In this document: in pieces, positions 9,880 through 62,794 of the stretch | Layout: each line of letters begins with the position of its first letter | Position numbering within the stretch: position 1 is the first letter of the stretch | Virus record (IMG/VR): IMGVR_UViG_2919614203_000001 | Location: 9,916-73,915 of that record | Strand: one strand, 5' to 3' | DNA length: 64,000 bases | Origin: a virus | The notes under the pieces: generated by a model | The model's database searches: none | What the model was told of the DNA's origin: nothing | Seen by the model: the letters and a program-made list of their open reading frames with translations, nothing else | Program-made: the position numbers and the translations under genes

Positions 9880-10545
9880 TCAGGAGAAAATCGAGAGTTG
9901 CAGGCGATCGTCGCCGTCCTGCTGGTCGCCGTTCAGCTGCAGCGCGTCGGCGCCGCCGTCCTGCTGATCGCCCGACAGCAACAGCGCGGATTCCGGCGCG
10001 GCATCGGCGCCCAGCATCAGGCGCGCGAAGACGACCGGCCGCGCCGCTGCGACAACGCCGATCGCGCCCAGCGCATCGGTCGCGATCAGGAACGTGAAAT
10101 GGGACCGGACGGGTTTCGTGCGGACGACTTCGGCGATGACCTGGTCGACGAATTCGGACGTCGGCGCGGCGCCATCGTTGCCGCTGATCGAAACGGTCAG
10201 GGTGAAAGTGTGCGGTTCGCCGGGCGGATCCTGTTCGAACCATTCGCGCATGACGACATGGCCGCCGAACGAGGCGACGACGTCCTGGATCGAACGGGTC
10301 GTCCCCTTGCGCCGTTGAACCGCGATCGCGGCCGCGATCCGCGCGCGGCGGATTCGCAGCGGCCAGGTCGCGTCCCAGCTGTCGATCGACAATGCCCAGG
10401 CCAGCCAGGGCAGCAAGTCTTCGGGGCAATCCCAGGGCGACCAAATGTCGCGCAGCGGCGCGCCGATCGCGCCGACCCGAGCGCCGATCAGCATTTCGAG
10501 CGCCTTTTCCAGCGTCGTCGCGTTCGGGGGCAGGATCTGCATCAT
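9880..10545 (-). CDS. gpI: Phage tail protein I
   Basis: LPPNAT.LE, CP..LLPWLAW.LSID.W, RRKGT, EWFE...GEPHTF. Confidence 0.9.
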   Translation of the reverse strand: MMQILPPNATTLEKALEMLIGARVGAIGAPLRDIWSPWDCPEDLLPWLAWALSIDSWDATWPLRIRRARIAAAIAVQRRKGTTRSIQDVVASFGGHVVMREWFEQDPPGEPHTFTLTVSISGNDGAAPTSEFVDQVIAEVVRTKPVRSHFTFLIATDALGAIGVVAAARPVVFARLMLGADAAPESALLLSGDQQDGGADALQLNGDQQDGDDRLQLSIFS

Positions 10546-52205: not shown

Positions 52206-55200
52206 GTGGAAGGTATGCCTTCACTTGAGGTCGGCTTCGCGATCGACACCGGAGGTTCGTTCGAATCCCTGCAGCAGCTGCAGGCGGTGATGGACACCAC
52301 CGAAGCCAAGGTGGTGGCGGAAGCGGCGAAAATCGAAAAAGCCACGTCCGGCATGGTCAATCTTTCCGGCAGCACGGCCGAGGTGAAGGCGTTCGGCAAC
52401 GCCTACACGCGCGAGATGGAAAGCCTGTCGCGCAGCAACCGCATCGCAGAGAGCGCGGCCGAGCGCATGATCAAGCAGCTCGACTGGCAGGCCATGACAT
52501 TCGGCAAGACCACTCAGGAGATCCGCGAAATGCGGGTCGAGCAGCGGGCGCTGGCGGCGGAATCGCGCGGCCTGACGGATGTCGCGAACCGGTTGCGCGC
52601 GGCCAATGCCGAGATCCAGCGGCTTGAAGGCACGACCAACACCATCAACACGACATCGGGCAAGACGGCCTTCGGGATGCGCAATCTGGGCTTCCAGGTG
52701 CAGGACCTTGGAGTCCAGTTCGCCATGGCGGCGCAGTCGGGCGATCCGCTTCGCGGCGTGATGATGGCGCTTGTCCAGCAGGGGCCGCAGATCAAGGACG
52801 CCATGGAGCAGGCCGAGCTCAGTGTCGGCGGACTGGTCCAGCGCCTTGGCGCGGGTGCTGCGCGCTTTGGTGTGTTTGCGGTCGGCGCTGCCGCCGGCGC
52901 ATACCAGATGAAGCAGTTCACGGACTCGCTCAACGAGAGCGCTGGCACCGATGCTTTCATCCGCTCACTTGGCCTGACGGCGGACGAGATCAAGGAGCTG
53001 GAGAATACCACGGTCACCTTTGGCGACGTCGCCCTGGGCACGTGGGATGTCGTTTCCGGAGGCATCTGGGACGTGATCGGCCCGGCTGTCACAGCCGCGC
53101 GTGGCTGGTTCGACGAGTGGTTCACCCACATGAACGCCGAGGGCGCGAAGCTGATCAACAATGTCGTCGGTTTCTTCGTCGGCGGGTTCAACGCGATCGG
53201 TGCGACCTGGTCGCGCCTGCCCGGCGCGATCGGCGACATCGCGACGAATGCGGCGAACGCGACCATCGCGGCCATCAACAAGATGGTGCAGATGGCGGTG
53301 AACGGCATCAACGCGCTGATCAATGCGGCGAACAGGCTGCCCGGCGTCGACATCGCGACGTTGACCGCTCCGCAGATCGGGATGATCGAAAACACGTATG
53401 CCGGGGCGGGAAAGGGCGCTGCGGACGCCTTCACGACCGCGTTCGACGCAGCGCAGAAGAACTATTGGGGCGCGTTCACCAGTGCGGTCGGCAATGCCGC
53501 GGAAAAGCGGTTTCAGGACCGAATCCGCGCACAAGCGGGCGAACTCATCGGGGAGCGCCCGGATTCGCCGGGTAGCGCTGGACGCAAGTCCCGGGAAGTC
53601 GACGAACTCGCCAGGGCCTATGACCGCGCCCTGAAGGCGGCACAGGGCTTCAACGCCTCGCTCGAGAAGGAAATCGCGCAGTTCGGCAAGACCGCGATCG
53701 AGATCAAGCGCATGGAGGCCGAAACTGCGGCGCTCGCCGCGGAAAAGGCGATCGTCGCCGGGTTGTCCAAGGAACAGGCCGAGGCGCTTCAGAAAGAGGC
53801 CGCCGCGATCCGGACGAACGTCACCGAGTGGGAGAGACTGACCCGCGCGCAGGCGGAGGCTGACTGGCGCCAGAACGTCATCGTGCCGCTGGAACAGGAG
53901 CTGGCCCTGCTGGGCAAGGTCGGTCCGGAACGCGAACTCGCGGCGCTCGCCTTCGAAGAGCAGGCCTTGAAGGCGCAGTGGGCCAAGGACGGTATCAGCG
54001 ACGTGAACAAAGCGTGGGAGGAATACTTGCGCCTGCGGACGAAGATCATCAACGAAAAGAGCGCGATGGAAGCGGAGGCCGAAAAGGCCAAGCTGCTTAA
54101 CGATGAGCTGCGCGACATGATCGGCCTGCTCGGCAACCTCGGCGGCGTCGGGAACGCCATCGGCGGACTGCTCGGCGTATTCTCCGGCAACACGTCGGCG
54201 GTCGGCGGGCCGCTCGGCGATATCCTCAACGCGACGATCGGCACGCGCCAGGACGAGAAGACCGGCAAGGTCATCGCCCGGACGATCGGCGACGAATTGT
54301 CCGACGTTTTCGGCGCTGGCGGGCCGTTCGCGAAAACCATGTCCAGCCTTCTGCAGGGCGCTGGCGCCGGCATGATGGCCAGCGAGCTGGTGCTGGGCAA
54401 GAATTCGACGACGGAGAAGATCGGCGCGGCTCTGGGCGGTGCGGCGGGCAAGGCACTGGGCACGGCGATCGGCGGGCCGCTGGGCGGGGCGATCGGCAGC
54501 GTCTTGGGTGGTATCGCGGGCGGCTTCGTCGGCGGGCTGTTCAAGAAGACGAAGTCCGGCGGGGCGACGATCACCGGTGTCGACCAGTTCAGCGTGTTCG
54601 GCAACAGCAGCTCTCGCATGGATGCCGCGGGCGATCTGGCGGGTTCGGTCCTCTCCGGCCTGGATAGCATCGCCAAGGCGCTGGGCGGCACGCTGGGCGG
54701 CTTCAACACAACCATCGGCATTCGCGGCAAGGACTACCGCGTCAACGGCAGCGGCACGTCGCTGAAGACCAGCAAGGGCGCGATCGACTTCGGCGACGAT
54801 GCGCAGGCTGCGATTGCCTTCGCGATAGAGGATGCGATCAAGGACGGGGCCCTGATGGGCCTCCGCGCGGGGACGCAGGCGCTTTTGCAGAAGGAGGGCG
54901 AGTTCGAGGCCCAGCTGCAGAAGGCGCTCGCGTTCGAGGGTGTGTTCCGCGAGCTGAAGGCGATGACCAGCCCGCTGGTCGTCGGCCTGGAGGACATTGC
55001 CGACCGCTTCGCCCAGCTGAAGGAGATCTTCACCGAGGCCGGGGCGAGCGCCGAAGAGTTCGGGCAGCTGCAGGAGCTGATGACCCGCCAGCAGCAGGCG
55101 CTCATCGACCAGATCAGCGCGAACTATCGTTCCACGTTCTACACCGACGCGGAAAACCTGAAGTTCGCCAAGCAGACGATCAAGGACACGCTGACCCCGC

Positions 55201-56153
55201 TCGGCAAGGGCTCGGTCGATACCGTCGCCGAATACAAGAAACTGGTCGAAGCCACCGACGCGCTCGCAAATCCAGAGCTTTACGGCGCGCTGATGGAGCT
55301 GGCCGACGAGTTCGGCGTGATCAAGGACGCCGCCGATGCCGCCGCGGCCAACAAGGAGGCGCTGAAGGCGCTGGCCGAGGCGATCAAGGCGCAGCGCACG
55401 CAGCTGCAGGTCGACCTGCTCAATGCGCAGGGCCGGGCGCTGGAAGCCACCGCGAAACAGCGCGAGGCCGAGCTGGCGGCGATGGACGCCTCGCTGCGTC
55501 CGCTGCAGCAGCAGGTCTGGGCGCATCAGGACCTGGCCGATGCGTGGGAGCGCGAAAGCGCCGAGCTCAATGCGACGATCAAGACATTTGGCGATCTGGG
55601 CGACACCCTGCGCGAGTTCCGCGACGGGCTTTACCAGACCGACGACGCGACCAGCTCCTACACTCGCCGCCTCGCCGAATTGCAGCGGGTCGGCGGGCTC
55701 GCCTCGCTGGGCGACAGGGATGCCATGGGCCTCCTCCCCGGTGTCGGGCAGGACTTCCTGGAAGTCGCCAAGCGGCAGGCCAGTTCGCTGCAGGATTACC
55801 AGCGCGACGTCGCCCGCGTGGCTCGCTACGCCGACAGCGCGATCGGCGCGGCGGACGGCATGGTCAGCGAGGCGCAGGCGCAGCTGGACGTGCTGGAAGA
55901 GCAGGTCAGCCAGTTCATCCAGTTGAACGACACGGCGCTGTCGATCGAGGATGCGCTGGAGCGGATGGTCATCTCGCAGACCTCGCCGGCGCAGACGAAC
56001 GCCGACCTGGCGCCGCGCCTCGATCGTAACAACGAGCTGCTCGAGCGTCTGCACACCGCGATCGAGGCGGGTGCGCTGGCCAGCATCGACACCGCGACGC
56101 TCATCCGCCGGGTCAGCCGTAACGGCGTTGCGCTGGCGACGACTGCGTCATGA
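52206..56153 (+). CDS. Tail tape measure protein
   Basis: 1315 aa helical, lambda-type LxVxxQQGPQI motif, Gly-zipper GG.LGG segment. Confidence 0.9.
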   Translation: MEGMPSLEVGFAIDTGGSFESLQQLQAVMDTTEAKVVAEAAKIEKATSGMVNLSGSTAEVKAFGNAYTREMESLSRSNRIAESAAERMIKQLDWQAMTFGKTTQEIREMRVEQRALAAESRGLTDVANRLRAANAEIQRLEGTTNTINTTSGKTAFGMRNLGFQVQDLGVQFAMAAQSGDPLRGVMMALVQQGPQIKDAMEQAELSVGGLVQRLGAGAARFGVFAVGAAAGAYQMKQFTDSLNESAGTDAFIRSLGLTADEIKELENTTVTFGDVALGTWDVVSGGIWDVIGPAVTAARGWFDEWFTHMNAEGAKLINNVVGFFVGGFNAIGATWSRLPGAIGDIATNAANATIAAINKMVQMAVNGINALINAANRLPGVDIATLTAPQIGMIENTYAGAGKGAADAFTTAFDAAQKNYWGAFTSAVGNAAEKRFQDRIRAQAGELIGERPDSPGSAGRKSREVDELARAYDRALKAAQGFNASLEKEIAQFGKTAIEIKRMEAETAALAAEKAIVAGLSKEQAEALQKEAAAIRTNVTEWERLTRAQAEADWRQNVIVPLEQELALLGKVGPERELAALAFEEQALKAQWAKDGISDVNKAWEEYLRLRTKIINEKSAMEAEAEKAKLLNDELRDMIGLLGNLGGVGNAIGGLLGVFSGNTSAVGGPLGDILNATIGTRQDEKTGKVIARTIGDELSDVFGAGGPFAKTMSSLLQGAGAGMMASELVLGKNSTTEKIGAALGGAAGKALGTAIGGPLGGAIGSVLGGIAGGFVGGLFKKTKSGGATITGVDQFSVFGNSSSRMDAAGDLAGSVLSGLDSIAKALGGTLGGFNTTIGIRGKDYRVNGSGTSLKTSKGAIDFGDDAQAAIAFAIEDAIKDGALMGLRAGTQALLQKEGEFEAQLQKALAFEGVFRELKAMTSPLVVGLEDIADRFAQLKEIFTEAGASAEEFGQLQELMTRQQQALIDQISANYRSTFYTDAENLKFAKQTIKDTLTPLGKGSVDTVAEYKKLVEATDALANPELYGALMELADEFGVIKDAADAAAANKEALKALAEAIKAQRTQLQVDLLNAQGRALEATAKQREAELAAMDASLRPLQQQVWAHQDLADAWERESAELNATIKTFGDLGDTLREFRDGLYQTDDATSSYTRRLAELQRVGGLASLGDRDAMGLLPGVGQDFLEVAKRQASSLQDYQRDVARVARYADSAIGAADGMVSEAQAQLDVLEEQVSQFIQLNDTALSIEDALERMVISQTSPAQTNADLAPRLDRNNELLERLHTAIEAGALASIDTATLIRRVSRNGVALATTAS

Positions 56154-57046
56154 AGATCATCCTGCCGCTGGAGATCACCGGTGCGAACCTGATCGACACC
56201 AACGTCACCGAGACGCTGCCGGTGTGGGATGAAGCCACGGCCTATGTCACCGCCGACCAGGTGCGCGTGATCCAGGCGGACGGCACCGGCATCGCCTACG
56301 AGGCGCTGGCGGGCAACACCGGCAAGGATCCCGCCGAAAATCCTGCCGAATGGCTCGATCTTGGCCCGACGAACCTGTGGGCGATGTTCGACAAGAAGGT
56401 CGGCACGCGGACTGTGCTGGAAGGGTCGGTCGACGTTAGCATCGACGTGACCGGCCGGGCGGACAGCCTGGCGCTGCTGAACCTGACGGGGACGGATGTC
56501 GACGTCGTCGTCGCGGATGCAGACGGGAACACGATCTACGACGAGAACTATCCGCTCGTTTCGGTCGACGGCATCGACAACTGGTACGATTATTTCTTCG
56601 CGGAGATCGAGACCACCGACAAGCTGATCCTGACGGATCTGCCGAACAACTACAACACGACCGTCCGGATCACCGTGAACTATGCCGATGCCACGGCCGG
56701 CGTGGGCTGGTTCGCGATCGGGCGCCTTGTGGATTTCGGCGTGACCGAGAAGGGCATGGGCATCGGGATCACCGACTACAGCCTCAAGGAAGCCGACGAT
56801 TTCGGAAACCTGTTCGTGTCGGAGCGTCCCTATTCCGGCACGGTCGTCGCCCGCGCGCTGGTGGAAAAGAGACGCGTCGATCCGGTCTACAGGACGCTGG
56901 CCGGCATTCGCGCCACGCCCGTCGTGTGGATCCCGGCCGACGCCTACACCAGTTCGATCGTCGTCGGCTTTTTCCGCGAGTTCAAGATCGCGATCGAATA
57001 CCCGACTTACTCCCTCTGCAACATCGAGATTGAAGGGCTGACCTGA
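56150..57046 (+). CDS. Tail tip / distal tail protein
   Basis: 298 aa directly after TMP; W.D.GPTN.W.MFD; IGI.DYS.K..D.FGN. Confidence 0.65.
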   Translation: MKIILPLEITGANLIDTNVTETLPVWDEATAYVTADQVRVIQADGTGIAYEALAGNTGKDPAENPAEWLDLGPTNLWAMFDKKVGTRTVLEGSVDVSIDVTGRADSLALLNLTGTDVDVVVADADGNTIYDENYPLVSVDGIDNWYDYFFAEIETTDKLILTDLPNNYNTTVRITVNYADATAGVGWFAIGRLVDFGVTEKGMGIGITDYSLKEADDFGNLFVSERPYSGTVVARALVEKRRVDPVYRTLAGIRATPVVWIPADAYTSSIVVGFFREFKIAIEYPTYSLCNIEIEGLT

Positions 57047-57993
57047 TGGCCGCACCGGAAATTACCACCCCGCCCGATGCGCCGGTGCGGGGCGAAGCTG
57101 CTGTCGATTTCGCGTCGAAGGCGGACGCCTTTGTCGCCTGGCTGGTGCTCTTCGTGACGCAGCTGCGCGCGGCGATCCTCTACATCGCGCAGCTGATGGC
57201 CGGGGCGCTTTCGTCCACCAGCTCCACGTCGGTGGCGATCGGGACGGGCACGCTGGTGTTCGAGCTCGACACCGAGGCTTCGTTCGTCGCCGGGCAGTCG
57301 GTCATCATCTCGGCCGATGCCGACAATTACATGCTGGGGACGGTCACCGATTATACCCACCCGGATCTGACGGTCGACGTGCTGTCGGTGACGGGCGCGG
57401 GCACTTTCGCGGACTGGGCCATCGGCCTGAACGTGTCGGCCGAAGACATCACGGCGGGCGGCATCGAGGCAGGCGCGCTGGCGATGCGCGACACCATCAA
57501 CGGCGCTGACTGGTCGGGCACCGATCTTTCCGTTGCCAACGGCGGCACGGGGGCGAGTGATGCGGCGACAGCTCGAACCAACCTTGCGGCGCTGGGCGCG
57601 GCGACGGCGGCGCAGGTGCGGGCGGGTATCGCCACCGATGTCGGCCTGACCCCGGCCAACCTCTACGCCGCCGGCGACGAGGTGGCGGTGGCCTATGCGG
57701 CCTCGATCGAGCTGGACTTCGCCGCGGGGCGCAACTTTGCGATCGGGCCCCTGACCGGCAACGTGTTCCTGGAGAACCCGGTCAACGCGATCGACGGGAT
57801 GTGGGGCGATATCGCCGTGCCGCAGGACGGCACCGGCGGGCGCACGATCGATTACGATACGAACTGGCGCTTTCCTAGCGGCAAGGCGGTGGGCGGGGTG
57901 CTTTCGACCGCCCCCAATGCCGAGGACATCATCAGCTATCGCGTGCGCAACGGCCTTTTCTACGGCACCGTGCGCAAGGGCTTCGCAGCCTGA
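57046..57993 (+). CDS. Tail fibre-like protein
   Basis: P..P.R...F...ADAF N-terminus, NGGTGAS.A..AR.NL repeat, QDGTGGR C-terminal domain. Confidence 0.65.
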   Translation: MAAPEITTPPDAPVRGEAAVDFASKADAFVAWLVLFVTQLRAAILYIAQLMAGALSSTSSTSVAIGTGTLVFELDTEASFVAGQSVIISADADNYMLGTVTDYTHPDLTVDVLSVTGAGTFADWAIGLNVSAEDITAGGIEAGALAMRDTINGADWSGTDLSVANGGTGASDAATARTNLAALGAATAAQVRAGIATDVGLTPANLYAAGDEVAVAYAASIELDFAAGRNFAIGPLTGNVFLENPVNAIDGMWGDIAVPQDGTGGRTIDYDTNWRFPSGKAVGGVLSTAPNAEDIISYRVRNGLFYGTVRKGFAA

Positions 57994-58892
57994 TGTTCGC
58001 GCCGCCCTTCTTCGGCGATCCGGACGCGGAGGTCGCGATCGACCTGGCCGTCTCGGTTTCGCCCGCATCCCGATCGACCGTGGGGTCGACCGCCACCTTG
58101 ACCAGCGAGGCGGTGACCGCCGTGGCGGTCGGCGGCACGGGCCCCTATAGCTACGCCTGGACGAAGTTGTCGGGCGGGGCGATCACGATCAACAGCCCGG
58201 CTGCGGCGACGACCACCTTCACGGCGGCGAGCATGGGCATCGGAGAGAGCCGCACGGCCTATTTCCTGTGCACGGTGACCGATGCGGCGACGGACACGGT
58301 GACGACGGTCACCGTAACAGTGACCTTCCTGCGCGCCGCGGCGCTCTCGGTTTCGGTCGCCAACAGGTCACGAAGCGGCACGGCGGGGACGCTCAGCACC
58401 ACTTATCCGGCCAGCAGCGTTGACGTTTCCGGCGGTGTGCCGCCCTATTCCTACGCATGGGTAAAGGTGTCGGGCGATGCGATCACCATCACGGACGAGA
58501 CGACGACCACGCCGACCTTTTCCGCGACCGGCCTGGCCTACGGCGAAAGCCGCGAAGCCAGGTATGAACTGACGGTCACCGATTCCGTCGGCACGATCGG
58601 CAGCGACGAGGCGGACATTGCGCTGTCCCGTGACACGGCGACGACGTTCAGCCCCGTGCCGGGATCGGTCAGCGGGCAGAGCGTCACGCTGAGCGCCAGC
58701 AACCTGGTCCGGTGGGTTTATACCAAGTCGGGCAGTTCGGGCGCGTCGGCGAGCCTCACCTCCGGCTTTCAGGGCACGTCGATCACCTTCGCACAAAATA
58801 CGCCCGGAACGGCGACATTCACTGTCACCGCGCGGAGCTCCGACAACACCACCGTGCTGGGCACGTGGACGATCACGGTGACCAAATCATGA
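57993..58892 (+). CDS. Ig/PKD-repeat virion protein
   Basis: Two repeats GG..PYSYAW.K.SG.AITI......TTF; Thr/Ser-rich. Confidence 0.7.
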   Translation: MFAPPFFGDPDAEVAIDLAVSVSPASRSTVGSTATLTSEAVTAVAVGGTGPYSYAWTKLSGGAITINSPAAATTTFTAASMGIGESRTAYFLCTVTDAATDTVTTVTVTVTFLRAAALSVSVANRSRSGTAGTLSTTYPASSVDVSGGVPPYSYAWVKVSGDAITITDETTTTPTFSATGLAYGESREARYELTVTDSVGTIGSDEADIALSRDTATTFSPVPGSVSGQSVTLSASNLVRWVYTKSGSSGASASLTSGFQGTSITFAQNTPGTATFTVTARSSDNTTVLGTWTITVTKS

Positions 58893-59035
58893 TGAGGGTG
58901 CTGCACCAGGGCGGGCGGATCATCTACCGCCGCGTCGACGGCATCCGGCGCCCTCTGCTGGTGGAGTCCACGCCGACTTTCGACAGCACGGCCGTCAAAT
59001 TCGATAGCACCCTTTGGAAGTGGGATATGACCTGA
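58889..59035 (+). CDS. Small virion protein
   Basis: 48 aa; TFDSTAVKFDST motif; coupled junctions. Confidence 0.5.
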   Translation: MMRVLHQGGRIIYRRVDGIRRPLLVESTPTFDSTAVKFDSTLWKWDMT

Positions 59036-59535
59036 TGGCGCAGCAGACAATCAATCTGGGCGCGGGCCCGAACGACAACACTGGGGACGATCTGCGCACG
59101 GGTGGCGACAAGATCAACGACAACTTCACTGAATTGTATGCTGAAGTCGCGACGATCCCTGATGCCTACACCGACGAACAGGTGCGCGATGTCATCGGCA
59201 CTGCACTGATTGAGGGCTCGGGTATCGAGATCACCGTCAATGACGGCGGTGATACGATCACCATTTCGGCCACTGGCGGCGGCGGGTCGCTGGAATGGGT
59301 GCCCAATTTTACCGCCGATGGCGAAGTGCGGATTTACGCAAGCGAAGCCATGACGATTACACAACAGGGGACCAGCGGGACAGGCTCAGTCGCCTATGAG
59401 AAAAGCACGGCCGCCGCGCCCGCTACGTTTTCCGGTACGTCCAGCCCTGCGACTCTGGAAGCTGGCGCATGGCTGAAGGTGACCGCCTCGGCCGTCGCCA
59501 CACTGTTCGCCGTCGCGCTCAAGAGGACCGCATGA
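59035..59535 (+). CDS. Fibre-anchor protein with NDxTGDxLR motif
   Basis: QTINLG..PND.TGD.LR.GGDKIN.NF.ELY, recalled from T4 gp9/10-type N-termini. Confidence 0.65.
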   Translation: MAQQTINLGAGPNDNTGDDLRTGGDKINDNFTELYAEVATIPDAYTDEQVRDVIGTALIEGSGIEITVNDGGDTITISATGGGGSLEWVPNFTADGEVRIYASEAMTITQQGTSGTGSVAYEKSTAAAPATFSGTSSPATLEAGAWLKVTASAVATLFAVALKRTA

Positions 59536-60152
59536 TCGTCCAATCGTGCCCTTTTCCTTCCGGGGGCGACCTGAGCGAGTTCCCTTTGGTCGCCCGCGCG
59601 ACGACGATTGAAGGTGGGACCATCCCCCTCTTGGGTCTCGACCTAACCGATTACCAATCGATCTTCGTGGCTATCGACGGGGTGAGGGTCAGCGTTGTAA
59701 ACACTCAGATCGGGCTTCGGGTGTCGGTCGACGGCGCGCTGCGGGCGAGCGGCTACCGTTACCTGAAAAACGCCGTTGATAGTAGCTCAACTACGGTTGG
59801 TAGTTATTATAGCCAAGGCGGCGACCGCGCCCTTCTTTCGACCAACGTGACAAACGCGGGCAGTCATTCCGCGAGTTGGGGCGTGCTCATTTCCGACAAC
59901 GATCCATCTTTGTTCAAGAACATGATCTTTGAAGAAGCCCGTATGATTTCCAACGCACCGGGCACTGCCACATATAGGGGTATTGGATGCGCTACGCTCG
60001 AAGTGGCTGGAACCATCGACGGGTTCCATCTTATTCCTGACAGCACCGGGGTGATCACCGAGGGAAGCCTTGCCGTTTACGGCGTCAAAAAGTCCGCTCG
60101 GACGGCAGGTGCTGTTGCGCTGGCGTCGATGTGGGTGGGGGCTTTGTCATGA
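59532..60152 (+). CDS. Beta-sandwich phage domain protein (paralog of 61325-61852); probable N-terminal part of a split PhoD fusion
   Basis: L.LTDYQ....IDG...LR, I.....K, G...G..L.P..G....G...YG; ends WVGALS-stop overlapping PhoD ATG. Confidence 0.65.
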   Translation: MIVQSCPFPSGGDLSEFPLVARATTIEGGTIPLLGLDLTDYQSIFVAIDGVRVSVVNTQIGLRVSVDGALRASGYRYLKNAVDSSSTTVGSYYSQGGDRALLSTNVTNAGSHSASWGVLISDNDPSLFKNMIFEEARMISNAPGTATYRGIGCATLEVAGTIDGFHLIPDSTGVITEGSLAVYGVKKSARTAGAVALASMWVGALS

Positions 60153-61315
60153 GCGGGGCAACCATTTCCATCCGCACTACCCGCAATACCAATGTGCGGC
60201 TTGCCTATTCGACCGATAGCGGACTCGCGTCGCCGTCGTATTCTGCATCGCAAGTTACGATTGATCGGACAGCCAAGTTCATCTTGACGGGTCTCGACCC
60301 CAACACCCGCTATTACTACGGCGCTGAAATTGACGGTATTCTGCAAGCGACAATCGGGACGTTCAAGACGCTGGGCGCGACCACCCTCAAGGTCTGCGTT
60401 TCGGGTGATGCGAGCAGCGGAAGCAACGCTGCGGTCTATGATACGATCCGAACCGAAGCGCCCGACCTGTTCCTGCACTTGGGGGATATTCACTACGACG
60501 ACAATTTCCTGAATTCGGAAGCGGTCGTCAACGGCTCGCTGGATCGGGTGTTTGCCCAAGCCAAGCCTGCCCAACTGTTTCGCGATATTCCCTCCTTGTG
60601 GATTTACGACGACCACGATTTTGGGCCGAACGACAGCCACGCTGGTTCGGGGATGACGGCTTCGTCTTCGATGTATCGCAAGCGGGCTCCCTCCTATCCG
60701 CTGCAATCGTCCACTTCGACTGACCCGGTTTATCACTCGTTCGAGATCAATGTTGACGGCATCGGGGTCGTGTTCATCGTGACCGACCAGCGTGCGGCAG
60801 CCTCGGACAAGACCGCAACCGACAATTCCAGCAAGACCATGCTCGGCACCACGCAGAAGACATGGTTCAAGGGTCTGTTTTCGAACCCGGCCAACGATGG
60901 AAAACTGTTCGTGTGGCTTTGCTCGCGGGCCTGGGGTGGTGTGGCGACTGCCGGTGCCGATCATTGGGGCGGCTTCACGACCGAACGCACCGAACTTGGC
61001 GCGCATATCCATGCCGAAGCACCTGGCCGGTGCCTTGTGCTTTCCGCCGACATGCACTCGCTCGCCTTTGATAACGGCACAAACCACACGTTCGGCAGCG
61101 AACCATTCGTCACCCTGCAATGCTCGCCGCTCGATAGGACCGGCGACACAACCTATGGCGGAGCGACCTATTCGCAGGGCCAATACACCAACAACGGCCA
61201 GTTTGCGGTCCTGACCTTCGCCAAGACGGGCGCGTCCCAGATCACGGTAGCGGCGGTCGGCAAGAACGCTGCCGGGTCAACGCTCGTCACCTATTCCCCC
61301 GTATTCAATCTGTGA
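60149..61315 (+). CDS. phoD: PhoD-like alkaline phosphatase/phosphodiesterase lacking signal peptide
   Basis: Fn3-like N-domain (LTGL.PNTRYYY), metal motifs HLGDIHYDD, YDDHDFGPND, TDQR, MLG..QK.W, SADMH. Confidence 0.82.
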   Translation: MSGATISIRTTRNTNVRLAYSTDSGLASPSYSASQVTIDRTAKFILTGLDPNTRYYYGAEIDGILQATIGTFKTLGATTLKVCVSGDASSGSNAAVYDTIRTEAPDLFLHLGDIHYDDNFLNSEAVVNGSLDRVFAQAKPAQLFRDIPSLWIYDDHDFGPNDSHAGSGMTASSSMYRKRAPSYPLQSSTSTDPVYHSFEINVDGIGVVFIVTDQRAAASDKTATDNSSKTMLGTTQKTWFKGLFSNPANDGKLFVWLCSRAWGGVATAGADHWGGFTTERTELGAHIHAEAPGRCLVLSADMHSLAFDNGTNHTFGSEPFVTLQCSPLDRTGDTTYGGATYSQGQYTNNGQFAVLTFAKTGASQITVAAVGKNAAGSTLVTYSPVFNL

Positions 61316-61324
61316 GGCCCTGAC

Positions 61325-61852
61325 ATGGCTTGGTCTATCATTTCGCATCAATCGGCCCCGGCTTCGAACCAGTTTGACTTTAGCAGCCTCACTCTCAGCG
61401 GATACCAGCGCCTTGTTCTGATGCTGGACGGGCTTGTCGTCGGGACTGACGGGGCGTTTATCCAATTGCGCCTCAAAATCGCCGGTTCGGAGATCTCGAC
61501 CAGCTACCGCTGGCACCATCGGGTGCATTCCTCGTCGAGTACGATTGAATCAACCAATACGCAGACCGGCACCTTCGTTCCGCTGATCTACGGGAGTGCA
61601 TCAGATTGGGGCATCGGGAATGCGGCGGGGAAAAGCGGCAGCGCAATGGTGCAGATCAGCAACCCTACTGCCGCACTCTACAAGACGATGACCGTTGACA
61701 GTGTGGTCAATGCTAAGACGGGCAGCATCGTGCGGGCCATCGGTGGAGGTTCGCTCGACAATACTGGCTCGATGAATGGGCTGCGGGTCTATCCGTCAAC
61801 TGGCACCCTGACGGCCGGCAAGGCGACTCTTTACGGTCTTAATACCGCCTGA
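61325..61852 (+). CDS. Beta-sandwich phage domain protein (standalone paralog)
   Basis: FDFSSL.LSGYQ.L.L..DG, QLR, ISNP....YK, G.L..P..G....G..TLYG. Confidence 0.7.
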   Translation: MAWSIISHQSAPASNQFDFSSLTLSGYQRLVLMLDGLVVGTDGAFIQLRLKIAGSEISTSYRWHHRVHSSSSTIESTNTQTGTFVPLIYGSASDWGIGNAAGKSGSAMVQISNPTAALYKTMTVDSVVNAKTGSIVRAIGGGSLDNTGSMNGLRVYPSTGTLTAGKATLYGLNTA

Positions 61853-62794
61853 TCTACGTTGCTCGATCAAGATGACTAGGAGTGCCGACACGGTCAGCGA
61901 CAAGGTTGCCGCCCCCGGCATTTCGAGGCCGATTGATCGCGCGAAGTCGATGACTGGCCGATGGGTTGCATAAAGCGGATAGGACAAGAGACCGAGGGCC
62001 GCGCAAAGCGAGGCGTGTTTGCTGTCCATCCGGGCAGCGCCAATGATCATCACGGGCGTTAGGATAAAGCAGAACGCCGGGTTGAAAAACCAAATCGGCA
62101 GCATCGGGCCAACGATCATCGCCAGCACGAATGTCGTCAGCGCTACCCAGGGGGTGACCTGGAATTCCTGCCAGCCAAAACGGAATATGGCCATGCCGAT
62201 AAGATACCCGGACAGGGCGCGGACAGCCATCGGCAGGAAGTAGGCGACGTCAGTGCCGCCGGTCTCATGACCGATCACGGCGGTGGCGGCCAGGTAGGAA
62301 AAAGCAGCGATAATCGTAAGGCACAGGAGCGCGCGATTGCCAATCCGGGCGAGCGCGACAGCGTGAAGAATGTTGGCGGCGAGCTCATAGAACAGCGACC
62401 AGCCTGGGCCATTGATGGGGAACGGCCGTTCGTCAAAGAGTGGTGCTGGCAAGAACGCCATGGCCAAGGCGAAGGCGATAATGACGAGAGCCGGATCAAA
62501 TCCGCCTGCCAACATATTCGCCGCGCCGATCGCGCAGCCGATGGCGAAAACGGGCCAGAGCCGACGGTAGCGCAAAACCATGAATCGCACGGGCGATAGA
62601 TCGCCAGAGGCCAGTCGCGGCTCGAACGTTCTTGCCATGACAAAACCGGAGATTGCGAAGAACAGGTCTACCGCCATGCCACCGCGGGTCCAGTTGCCCG
62701 GTATCGTCCCGAACCAAGCGTCGAGATGAAAAATGAACACCGCCAGTGCAGCGAGGCCTCGAAGCGCGTCGAGACCGTAAAGACGTTTCCCCAT
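61796..62794 (-). CDS. Membrane O-acyltransferase (OafA/Acyl_transf_3 family)
   Basis: LDALRGLAAL.V..FH, AVDLFF.ISGFVM, RYRRLWP, WSL.YE, LG..SYPLY..H; ~9-10 TM segments. Confidence 0.9.
   Translation of the reverse strand: MGKRLYGLDALRGLAALAVFIFHLDAWFGTIPGNWTRGGMAVDLFFAISGFVMARTFEPRLASGDLSPVRFMVLRYRRLWPVFAIGCAIGAANMLAGGFDPALVIIAFALAMAFLPAPLFDERPFPINGPGWSLFYELAANILHAVALARIGNRALLCLTIIAAFSYLAATAVIGHETGGTDVAYFLPMAVRALSGYLIGMAIFRFGWQEFQVTPWVALTTFVLAMIVGPMLPIWFFNPAFCFILTPVMIIGAARMDSKHASLCAALGLLSYPLYATHRPVIDFARSIGLEMPGAATLSLTVSALLVILIEQRRSGGIKTVKSRLAGRQGAS

Follow-up and report, generated by a model that had tools for sequence, protein, structure and literature searches.

In chaperone-usher pilins, an Ig/FN3-like sandwich that lacks an edge strand is supplied with it by the terminal peptide of a neighboring subunit, and the resulting link is non-covalent and stable. 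Virion-borne receptor-degrading enzymes are known as tailspike depolymerases and as GDPD-type glycerophosphodiesterase modules in staphylococcal phage baseplates, and programmed −1 frameshifts fuse phage structural genes such as lambda G/GT and T7 10A/10B. We compare with these systems a PhoD-family gene and the gene directly 5′ of it in the tail module of a siphovirus-type prophage. Both lie in a stretch of 64,000 nt (positions 9,916 to 73,915 of IMG/VR virus record IMGVR_UViG_2919614203_000001), hereafter the window, whose numbering is used unless another locus is named. PhoD of Bacillus subtilis (2YEQ; PF09423) is a phosphodiesterase/phosphomonoesterase exported by the twin-arginine (Tat) route, and is reported to be an endo-acting (endolytic) hydrolase of wall teichoic acid (PMC7086022). 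Phage PhoD genes are currently taken as phosphate-scavenging auxiliaries, and those of the cyanophages (YongM, Elbi and Dfl-JY23; A-Lf14/A-Alj1/A-Hlh1 of 10.64898/2026.02.14.705889) were published as auxiliary metabolic genes, their split from the upstream open reading frame (ORF) being unremarked there. The locus in the window and its relatives suggest that many of these genes belong to fiber assemblies, and offer a concrete mode of attachment. The features at the junction are as follows.

59532..60152, + strand: P0001, 206 aa, a lectin-like beta-sandwich ('dom') and a flexible tail
60126..60149, + strand: C-terminal octapeptide S-M-W-V-G-A-L-S of P0001, corresponding to strand A of the PhoD N-domain and proposed as a donor strand
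60137..60141, + strand: GGGGG, a Shine-Dalgarno (SD)-like element for PhoD, 7 nt 5′ of the ATG, in the Val-Gly-Ala codons of the strand
60149..61315, + strand: P0002, 388 aa, a signal-less PhoD-family metallophosphoesterase (PF09423, 6e-16)

The original prediction, made from the letters and a list of ORFs, had recognized a PhoD-like ORF by the motifs GDIHYDD, DDHD and ADMH, and both the profile match and the invariant alignment columns agree with it. P0002 scores 58.9 bits against Pfam PF09423 (cutoff 27; residues 93-368 on profile positions 13-335 of 343) and matches PHROG 13624 'hydrolase' at 1e-59. GDIHYDD (residues 112-118; 60482-60502), DDHD (154-157; 60608-60619) and ADMH (300-303; 61046-61057) are present, as is SGDA, so that the metal-ligand motifs of PhoD (GD, GDxxY, DDHD/E, xDxH) are all found in P0002, and D113, D154, H156, D157, D213, D301 and H303 are invariant among the 40 homologs aligned. 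The assignment of the fold rests on a model of the homolog P0040 (47% identical to P0002) and not of P0002 itself; this model has a mean predicted local distance difference test score (pLDDT) of 95, and its best PDB match is 2YEQ (E = 1.2e-25, TM 0.78), followed by purple acid phosphatases. The N-terminus of P0002 (MSGATISIRTTRN), read directly, shows neither an RR motif nor a hydrophobic core or segment, and the twin-arginine signal of exported cellular PhoD is absent from it. P0002 is apparently an active, signal-less PhoD-type metallophosphoesterase, as judged by its motifs. It belongs to the same family as B. subtilis PhoD by hidden Markov model (HMM), shares the metallophosphoesterase motifs and has an FN3-like N-domain followed by the catalytic domain; it differs in having no Tat signal, in being about 130 residues shorter, with weak direct similarity (phmmer E = 0.006), in its location in a prophage tail module, and in having the first strand of its N-domain on another gene. 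A contig search of genomes with P0002 alone returned distant cellular PhoDs only, and among 301 genomes of the host's order three others matched P0002, distantly (28-31% identity, E = 1e-21 to 2e-25).

P0001 ends in S-M-W-V-G-A-L-S followed by TGA, and PhoD starts with MSGATISIR at the overlapping ATG (TCATGAGC), as the original prediction had read the junction; it had also proposed, rightly as it turned out, that WVGALS and MSGATISIR together resemble the first strands of the PhoD N-domain. We built a family HMM from P0002-like starts and mapped its position 1 onto about 190 distinct relatives, drawn from viral, metagenomic and genomic contigs. Nearly all of them, cellular proteins with signal peptides included, carry phi-x-phi-W-x-G-[AG]-phi-[TS] (phi, hydrophobic residue) in frame directly 5′ of position 1, and >100 relatives, both cellular and viral, have Ser-x-Trp-x-Gly-Ala-x-Thr in cis just ahead of PhoD. 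In the P0040 model, motif residues 2-12 form a beta-strand (pLDDT 96), followed by a two-residue turn and by strand B (15-22); M1-S2 of P0002 align to the turn, and G3-T10 to strand B. According to this model and alignment, strand A of that N-domain corresponds to the last eight residues of P0001, and the hairpin turn is exactly where one gene gives way to the next. P0002 reaches 19.9 bits against PF16655 (PhoD_N; cutoff 30), at profile positions 26-90 only, and does not hold a complete N-terminal PhoD_N/FN3-like sandwich in one chain, strand A being on P0001 instead. The original prediction had counted homologs consisting of two proteins, with PhoD folding complete from the Met at 60149, as evidence against a joined product; only the first half of this applies, since homologs do encode two proteins, whereas a PhoD chain that begins at that Met lacks strand A and is thus incomplete in its fold.

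The split, in which PhoD starts at the turn and the upstream ORF ends in the strand, is found in at least 16 divergent phage loci, namely the window, L004, L017, L029, L030, L031, L037, L139, L190, L195-L198 and three cyanophages. The identity of their PhoDs to P0002 is 36-66%. The last residues of the upstream ORF before its stop, and the junctions, are as follows.

L004: SLWVGALS, junction TAATG
L017: SLWIGGLT, junction TTGA with a TTG start
L029: SMWSGALS, junction ATGA
L030: SLWVGAPT, junction ATGA
L031: SLWTGDVA, junction ATGA
L037: SIWVGAIE, junction ATGA
L139: SMWIGGVS, junction ATGA
L190 (L190:3914-3946): SLWIGLNS, junction in frame, TAA-GAT-ATG
L195: DLWIGGMA, junction TAATG
L196: TLWLGALQ, junction ATGA
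L197: SLWVGEIA, junction ATGA
L198: SLWVGGEA, junction GTGA
Isolated cyanophages, spacers of 1-8 nt: NMWTATF (Dfl-JY23), SIWSIAY (Elbi), SIWTSTY (YongM)

At L190, read-through of the stop would fuse both proteins; the contig ends inside PhoD. The cyanophage PhoD domains are 36-41% identical to P0002 and lie beside fiber genes, likewise split from an upstream ORF that ends in S/N-phi-W-x-x-x-x; they differ from the window in a C-terminal extension of ~280 aa, in the short spacers that replace ATGA and in a tail one residue shorter.

The upstream proteins that carry the tail comprise at least five unrelated architectures of 200-811 aa and have only the C-terminal octapeptide in common:

about 200-217 aa, single domain: the window, L004, L029-L031
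about 480 aa, with an internal copy of dom: L017, L195
SPRY-like pair: L037, L197
other carriers: 811 aa (L196), 668 aa (L198) and others

Among loci classed by script as having strand A in cis and with a nearby upstream ORF, the motif stands at the end of that ORF in 3 of 91; of these three, L029 and L025 (the window itself) are in fact split loci that the regular expression had misassigned, so that L032 is the sole true cis case. Over all loci the motif is present at 19 of 5905 ORF C-termini, split loci and duplicates included. This is the distribution expected of a donor strand, with a strand-less acceptor, a tail on the partner and complementary occurrence of the two. In a maximum-likelihood tree the window belongs to a 35-row clade (Shimodaira-Hasegawa-like approximate likelihood ratio test, 92) that is almost uniformly without strand A in cis, and other lineages with the split branch off close to the root of the phage group.

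The conserved split suggests, from sequence comparison, that the strand is a plug fastening the enzyme to the fiber protein. PhoD would be translated by ordinary coupling, through the ATGA overlap and the SD-like element; the tail of P0001, acting post-translationally as a donor strand, would pair with PhoD strand B and would tether the enzyme non-covalently to the fiber/lectin module of the tail tip, where virion-borne PhoD could, by analogy with the teichoicase activity reported for the B. subtilis enzyme, cleave phosphodiester-linked polymers of the host envelope. We lean toward this reading, in which P0001 and P0002 are separately translated and yet one functional unit, with a donor-strand tether and a virion-borne PhoD that cleaves surface polymers. 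The chaperone-usher donor strand is an analogy of function, not of family: here a C-terminal tail would provide strand A of the accessory domain of an enzyme, and the P0001-PhoD model has no chaperone or usher. Should the octapeptide dock in this way and make the sandwich whole, it would offer a compact natural tag by which cargo enzymes are mounted on phage fibers, and phosphodiester-linked glycans on the surface of Gram-negative hosts would become candidates for phage receptors or barriers.

Several indirect lines of evidence would place the enzyme with the virion. P0002 is encoded inside the tail/fiber morphogenesis operon, as expected of a virion-associated receptor-degrading enzyme, and here the original prediction, that a PhoD without export signal sits among tail-fiber genes, agrees with the module as mapped and the N-terminus as read. 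Like known receptor-degrading enzymes, P0002 lies in a tail-fiber module beside lectin-like domains, and a gene for a receptor-modifying acyltransferase stands where the prophage ends; P0002 differs from these enzymes in its fold, which is PhoD and not beta-helix or GDPD, and in its putative attachment by a split domain instead of an N-terminal adaptor. PhoD has the same placement in a tail/fiber module in L029, L030 and L198, and homologs are found in the structural modules of unrelated phages, next to the neck/capsid fiber in cyanophages. In a concentrated preparation of phage YongM analyzed by liquid chromatography-tandem mass spectrometry, PhoD came 7th and the tail-bearing product of the gene before it 20th among 32 proteins, while the polymerase was present in trace (PMC8875764).

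The same linkage would be made in relatives by in-frame fusion. P0020, P0021, P0023 and P0030 (565-570 aa) are natural single ORFs of dom, linker and PhoD; in another class of single ORFs, of about 620 aa, a different N-domain precedes strand A and PhoD, and one of these bears a Laminin_G_3 (ConA-like) N-domain (3e-20). In P0010, PhoD and a C-terminal dom share one ORF. The four dom-PhoD fusions have a single hybrid motif, in which W-x-G-A/H-T/L runs directly into strand B. They are six residues shorter than true cis forms and match, in register, what would be left by a 17-nt deletion between the two GGGGC repeats on either side of the stop and start in the window (60130-60160). They nest inside the split clade (100*), so that they are likelier derived from split genes than ancestral; by these comparisons the hybrids are probably secondary fusions. 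The original prediction had proposed a fusion as the ancestral or functional product. It was right in that the upstream end is collinear with strand A and that natural fusions exist, but the nesting speaks against taking the fusion as ancestral.

A third route, apparently by −1 frameshift, is seen in the distant relatives L199 (L199:2945-3001) and L200 (L200:2942-3001). The upstream fiber ORF, which in L199 encodes a collagen and Laminin_G_3 protein, stops three codons after an in-frame T_TTT_TTA, and the −1 frame runs without a start codon into a cis strand A and PhoD. The C-terminus falls at the same position in proteins homologous to the upstream one of L199 (six usable full-length relatives, in a search swamped by collagen repeats). 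Gene callers place the PhoD starts of both loci inside strand B. The sequence has the appearance of a true programmed −1 frameshift or, alternatively, of recurrent frameshifting in a T-run. The site recalls lambda G/GT and T7 10A/10B, whereas the window has no such site, has its own PhoD start codon and is split after strand A, not before it. In a scan for slippery sites at 192 distinct PhoD starts, TTTTTTA was found in L199 and L200 only; slippery-type matches such as those in L024, L146 and L028 would be expected from chance alone, and searches of viral contigs with P0093 and P0051 found no close relatives that extend the frameshift set. With fusion, frameshift and donor strand side by side, we tentatively propose, with somewhat less confidence than in the tether itself, that S-phi-W-phi-G-x-x-x is a portable docking tag on unrelated fiber proteins, which completes a strand-deleted PhoD and loads it on the virion. 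Linkage would then be reached in three ways (donor strand, in-frame fusion and U_UUU_UUA −1 frameshift), the first being a natural split-domain plug-and-socket that could set the amount of enzyme per fiber. If the octapeptide docks, fusion, frameshift and split would line up as a clean evolutionary series at one domain junction.

A number of observations weigh against a virion-borne, tethered enzyme. The hybrid-motif fusions indicate that a covalently linked PhoD may fold without strand A, and donation of the strand becomes less necessary to that extent. In L032, the closest relative of the window (PhoD 92% and upstream protein 57% identical), a junction insert of 103 nt (L032:6747-6851; the same in L033) gives PhoD its own strand A and, in frame with it, a Tat-like RR/lipobox leader, an arrangement that, on sequence, suits an enzyme that is exported and not part of the virion; the tail is nonetheless retained in the upstream protein, which ends in SLWAGALT and a stop. 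The insert is possibly an exported lipoprotein variant, or a remnant of recombination with a cellular phoD. Streptomyces BE-type phages carry a homolog among tRNA genes, outside the structural genes. The YongM preparation was a concentrated lysate, not gradient-pure virions (PMC8875764). A 2026 preprint assigns cyanophage phoD an auxiliary role in phosphate scavenging and finds its transcription to be independent of the neighboring neck-fiber genes, its expression very high and infection phosphate-dependent (10.64898/2026.02.14.705889). These points favor a soluble auxiliary enzyme, by which PhoD would act off the virion, in the infected cell or the lysogen, for phosphate scavenging or envelope remodeling, the tail of P0001 being a relic or a transient contact. 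A relic, however, would not retain S-phi-W-x-G at the exact C-terminus of at least five unrelated carriers, with PhoDs of 36-66% identity and Ser codons of different families; moreover, P0002 has no signal peptide, its gene is tightly coupled within the tail-fiber operon, and the PhoD of YongM ranks among structural proteins with the polymerase in trace. We regard the auxiliary enzyme as doubtful, though the strongest of the alternatives.

How the junction is translated bears on the remaining alternatives. ATGA or 1-nt overlaps are the general coupling in the module (56150, 57046, 57993, 59532, 60149), and because such coupling is normal throughout it, the P0001/P0002 overlap is in itself no oddity. 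An SD-like GGAG, GGAGG or GGGGG lies 10-15 nt 5′ of the start in all eight GC-rich split junctions checked, formed by the Gly codons of strand A, and a start codon of its own (ATG, GTG or TTG) is found in each split PhoD, always at one and the same residue. Eight split junctions (the window and seven others) were searched up to 60 nt from the stop, and none showed an X_XXY_YYZ slippery heptamer, so the mark of a programmed −1 frameshift, an in-frame heptamer 5′ of the 0-frame stop, is absent from the window. The geometry of the junction also varies, being ATGA, TAATG, TTGA, GTGA, the in-frame TAA-GAT-ATG, or a spacer of 1-8 nt. The missing heptamer, the SD-like elements and this varied geometry, the in-frame stop included, speak for two polypeptides made by ordinary coupling rather than for recoding. 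Recoding, that is, a −1 frameshift or stop bypass at the ATGA that makes a P0001-PhoD fusion of ~594 aa, alone or beside the separate products, could draw on three facts: PhoD is in the −1 frame at all ATGA/TAATG junctions, plain concatenation is exactly collinear with the cis forms (GAL-SMS-GAT vs GAL-TDD-GAT), and the in-frame U_UUU_UUA of L199 and L200 would fuse a fiber ORF to PhoD. Yet an ATGA is by definition a −1 overlap, and neither the in-frame stop of L190 nor the cyanophage spacers, which put PhoD in other frames, would suit it, so that we consider recoding improbable.

The SD-like elements might also mean that the tail is kept for an RNA signal only, its codons carrying the ribosome-binding site and coupling signal for PhoD while the peptide itself is idle; Gly-Ala or Gly-Gly codons do form GGAG or GGGGG 6-10 nt ahead of the start at 8 of 8 GC-rich split loci. 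But the Ser, the hydrophobic residue and the Trp lie 18-24 nt upstream, too distant for an SD; the same residues are kept in L190 and the AT-rich cyanophage junctions, which have no SD-like element, and they are conserved in cis forms, where no start follows. The Ser two residues 5′ of the Trp is encoded by TCG, TCC, TCT, AGC and AGT. Since it uses both the TCN and AGY families, and since the Trp is retained in the AT-rich cyanophage junctions without an SD, selection acts on the peptide and not on the RNA alone, and an idle peptide is very improbable.

Hardly credible is a recent 1-nt deletion or assembly error that broke a fused gene into a pseudogene pair: the split does equal a fusion less one base, but it recurs in at least 16 independent assemblies and isolates, three sequenced cyanophages among them, a number that excludes an assembly error, and both ORFs are intact and conserved, with PhoD 92% identical in L032 and the metal ligands invariant. 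By these comparisons of loci, the split is neither a 1-nt deletion, nor an assembly error, nor recoding, the three causes among which the original prediction had left the choice; throughout the nearest clade the two proteins are encoded separately, with the break at precisely this position.

The dom of P0001 (residues ~19-186) is modeled by AlphaFold2 as a beta-sandwich with pLDDT about 95 (40-sequence alignment), and its 20-residue C-terminal tail, modeled in isolation, is flexible (pLDDT 54) and outside the fold of P0001 itself. Thirty-five homologs were found. P0001 had no match in Pfam, in PHROGs or, by tblastn, in 50,697 phage records, 40 members of its family gave noise only against Pfam, and Foldseek found nothing in the PDB at E ≤ 0.001 with the model. 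A wide structure search with it returned generic lectin-like sandwiches at Z 7-8 (GH32 C-terminal, galectin, ConA-like), among them some carbohydrate-binding modules of phage fibers and baseplates; the nearest Atlas clusters are all viral and include proteins with a T7 tail-fiber N-domain. The domain represents an unnamed virus-only family of about 170 aa, with no function in Pfam or PHROGs, of which 2-5 paralogous copies occur around PhoD, free, in tandem, or fused to either end of PhoD (window 61325-61852, L031:6001-8861, L004:7197-8276). Arrangements at other loci, 'then' marking a gene boundary, are dom then PhoD then dom; dom then PhoD then dom-dom; dom then PhoD-dom then dom then dom; and dom, dom, dom-PhoD.

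The morphogenesis block of the prophage is complete in the window and lies on the + strand. The distal-tail module consists of the seven genes 3′ of the tape measure gene, the fifth and sixth being those of P0001 and P0002. The other features are as follows.

from 43107, + strand: large terminase, then portal, protease, major capsid, adaptor, tail completion and major tail genes
52206..56153, + strand: tape measure protein, 1315 aa (PHROG 3336/167, tail length tape measure), at the start of the distal-tail module
56150-57046, + strand: distal-tail gene, 298 aa
57046-57993, + strand: distal-tail gene, 315 aa, with tail-fiber PHROG matches
57993-58892, + strand: 299-aa protein, PKD/K319L-like and SprB repeats, Ig-like, with a Hoc-like PHROG match
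59014..59535, + strand: 173-aa protein with a T4 gp9/gp10-like N-terminal segment (PF07880, 1e-06; PHROG 677 'baseplate wedge tail fiber protein connector', 4e-15)
61325..61852, + strand: 175-aa paralog of the P0001 domain, without the tail (BLASTP 31% identity, E = 2e-15; dom HMM 1e-64)
61796..62794, − strand: acyltransferase-3, O-antigen-acetylase-like, convergent (PF01757, 1e-23; PHROG 3333 O-acetyltransferase, 4e-34; PHROG 6705 O-antigen acetylase)

The 173-aa protein, whose gene is ATGA-coupled to that of P0001, is by its matches a candidate fiber anchor or adaptor. The sole sizeable gap in the operon (58893-59013) lies directly 3′ of the 299-aa gene. The 175-aa paralog is 41% identical to the N-domain of the fused relative P0030. 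One soil-metagenome run shared 7% of the window's words, and a single 151-nt contig from it covers 60404-60550, outside the junction.

At L194:2486-2564 (Nostoc phage YongM, MT426122), the deposited PhoD coding sequence starts 78 nt 3′ of the conserved start (MGTIAATIK...), so that the annotated protein lacks strands B and C; PhoD truly begins 1 nt past the stop codon of the preceding gene, whose product ends in SIWTSTY. The annotated starts of several deposited phage PhoD genes would be corrected in this way. In Microbacterium phage Tandem, gene 38 (L193:6218-8170) encodes a 650-aa phosphoesterase with a PhoD-like domain between the major capsid and head-to-tail stopper genes, a third kind of structural-module placement for PhoD. 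The last 57 nt of the 175-aa gene (61796-61852) are shared with the acyltransferase-3 ORF of the window, and the position of this ORF at the prophage end, beside receptor-binding genes, is typical of lysogenic conversion. This convergent O-antigen-acetylase-like gene suggests, by its homology, a polysaccharide surface receptor.

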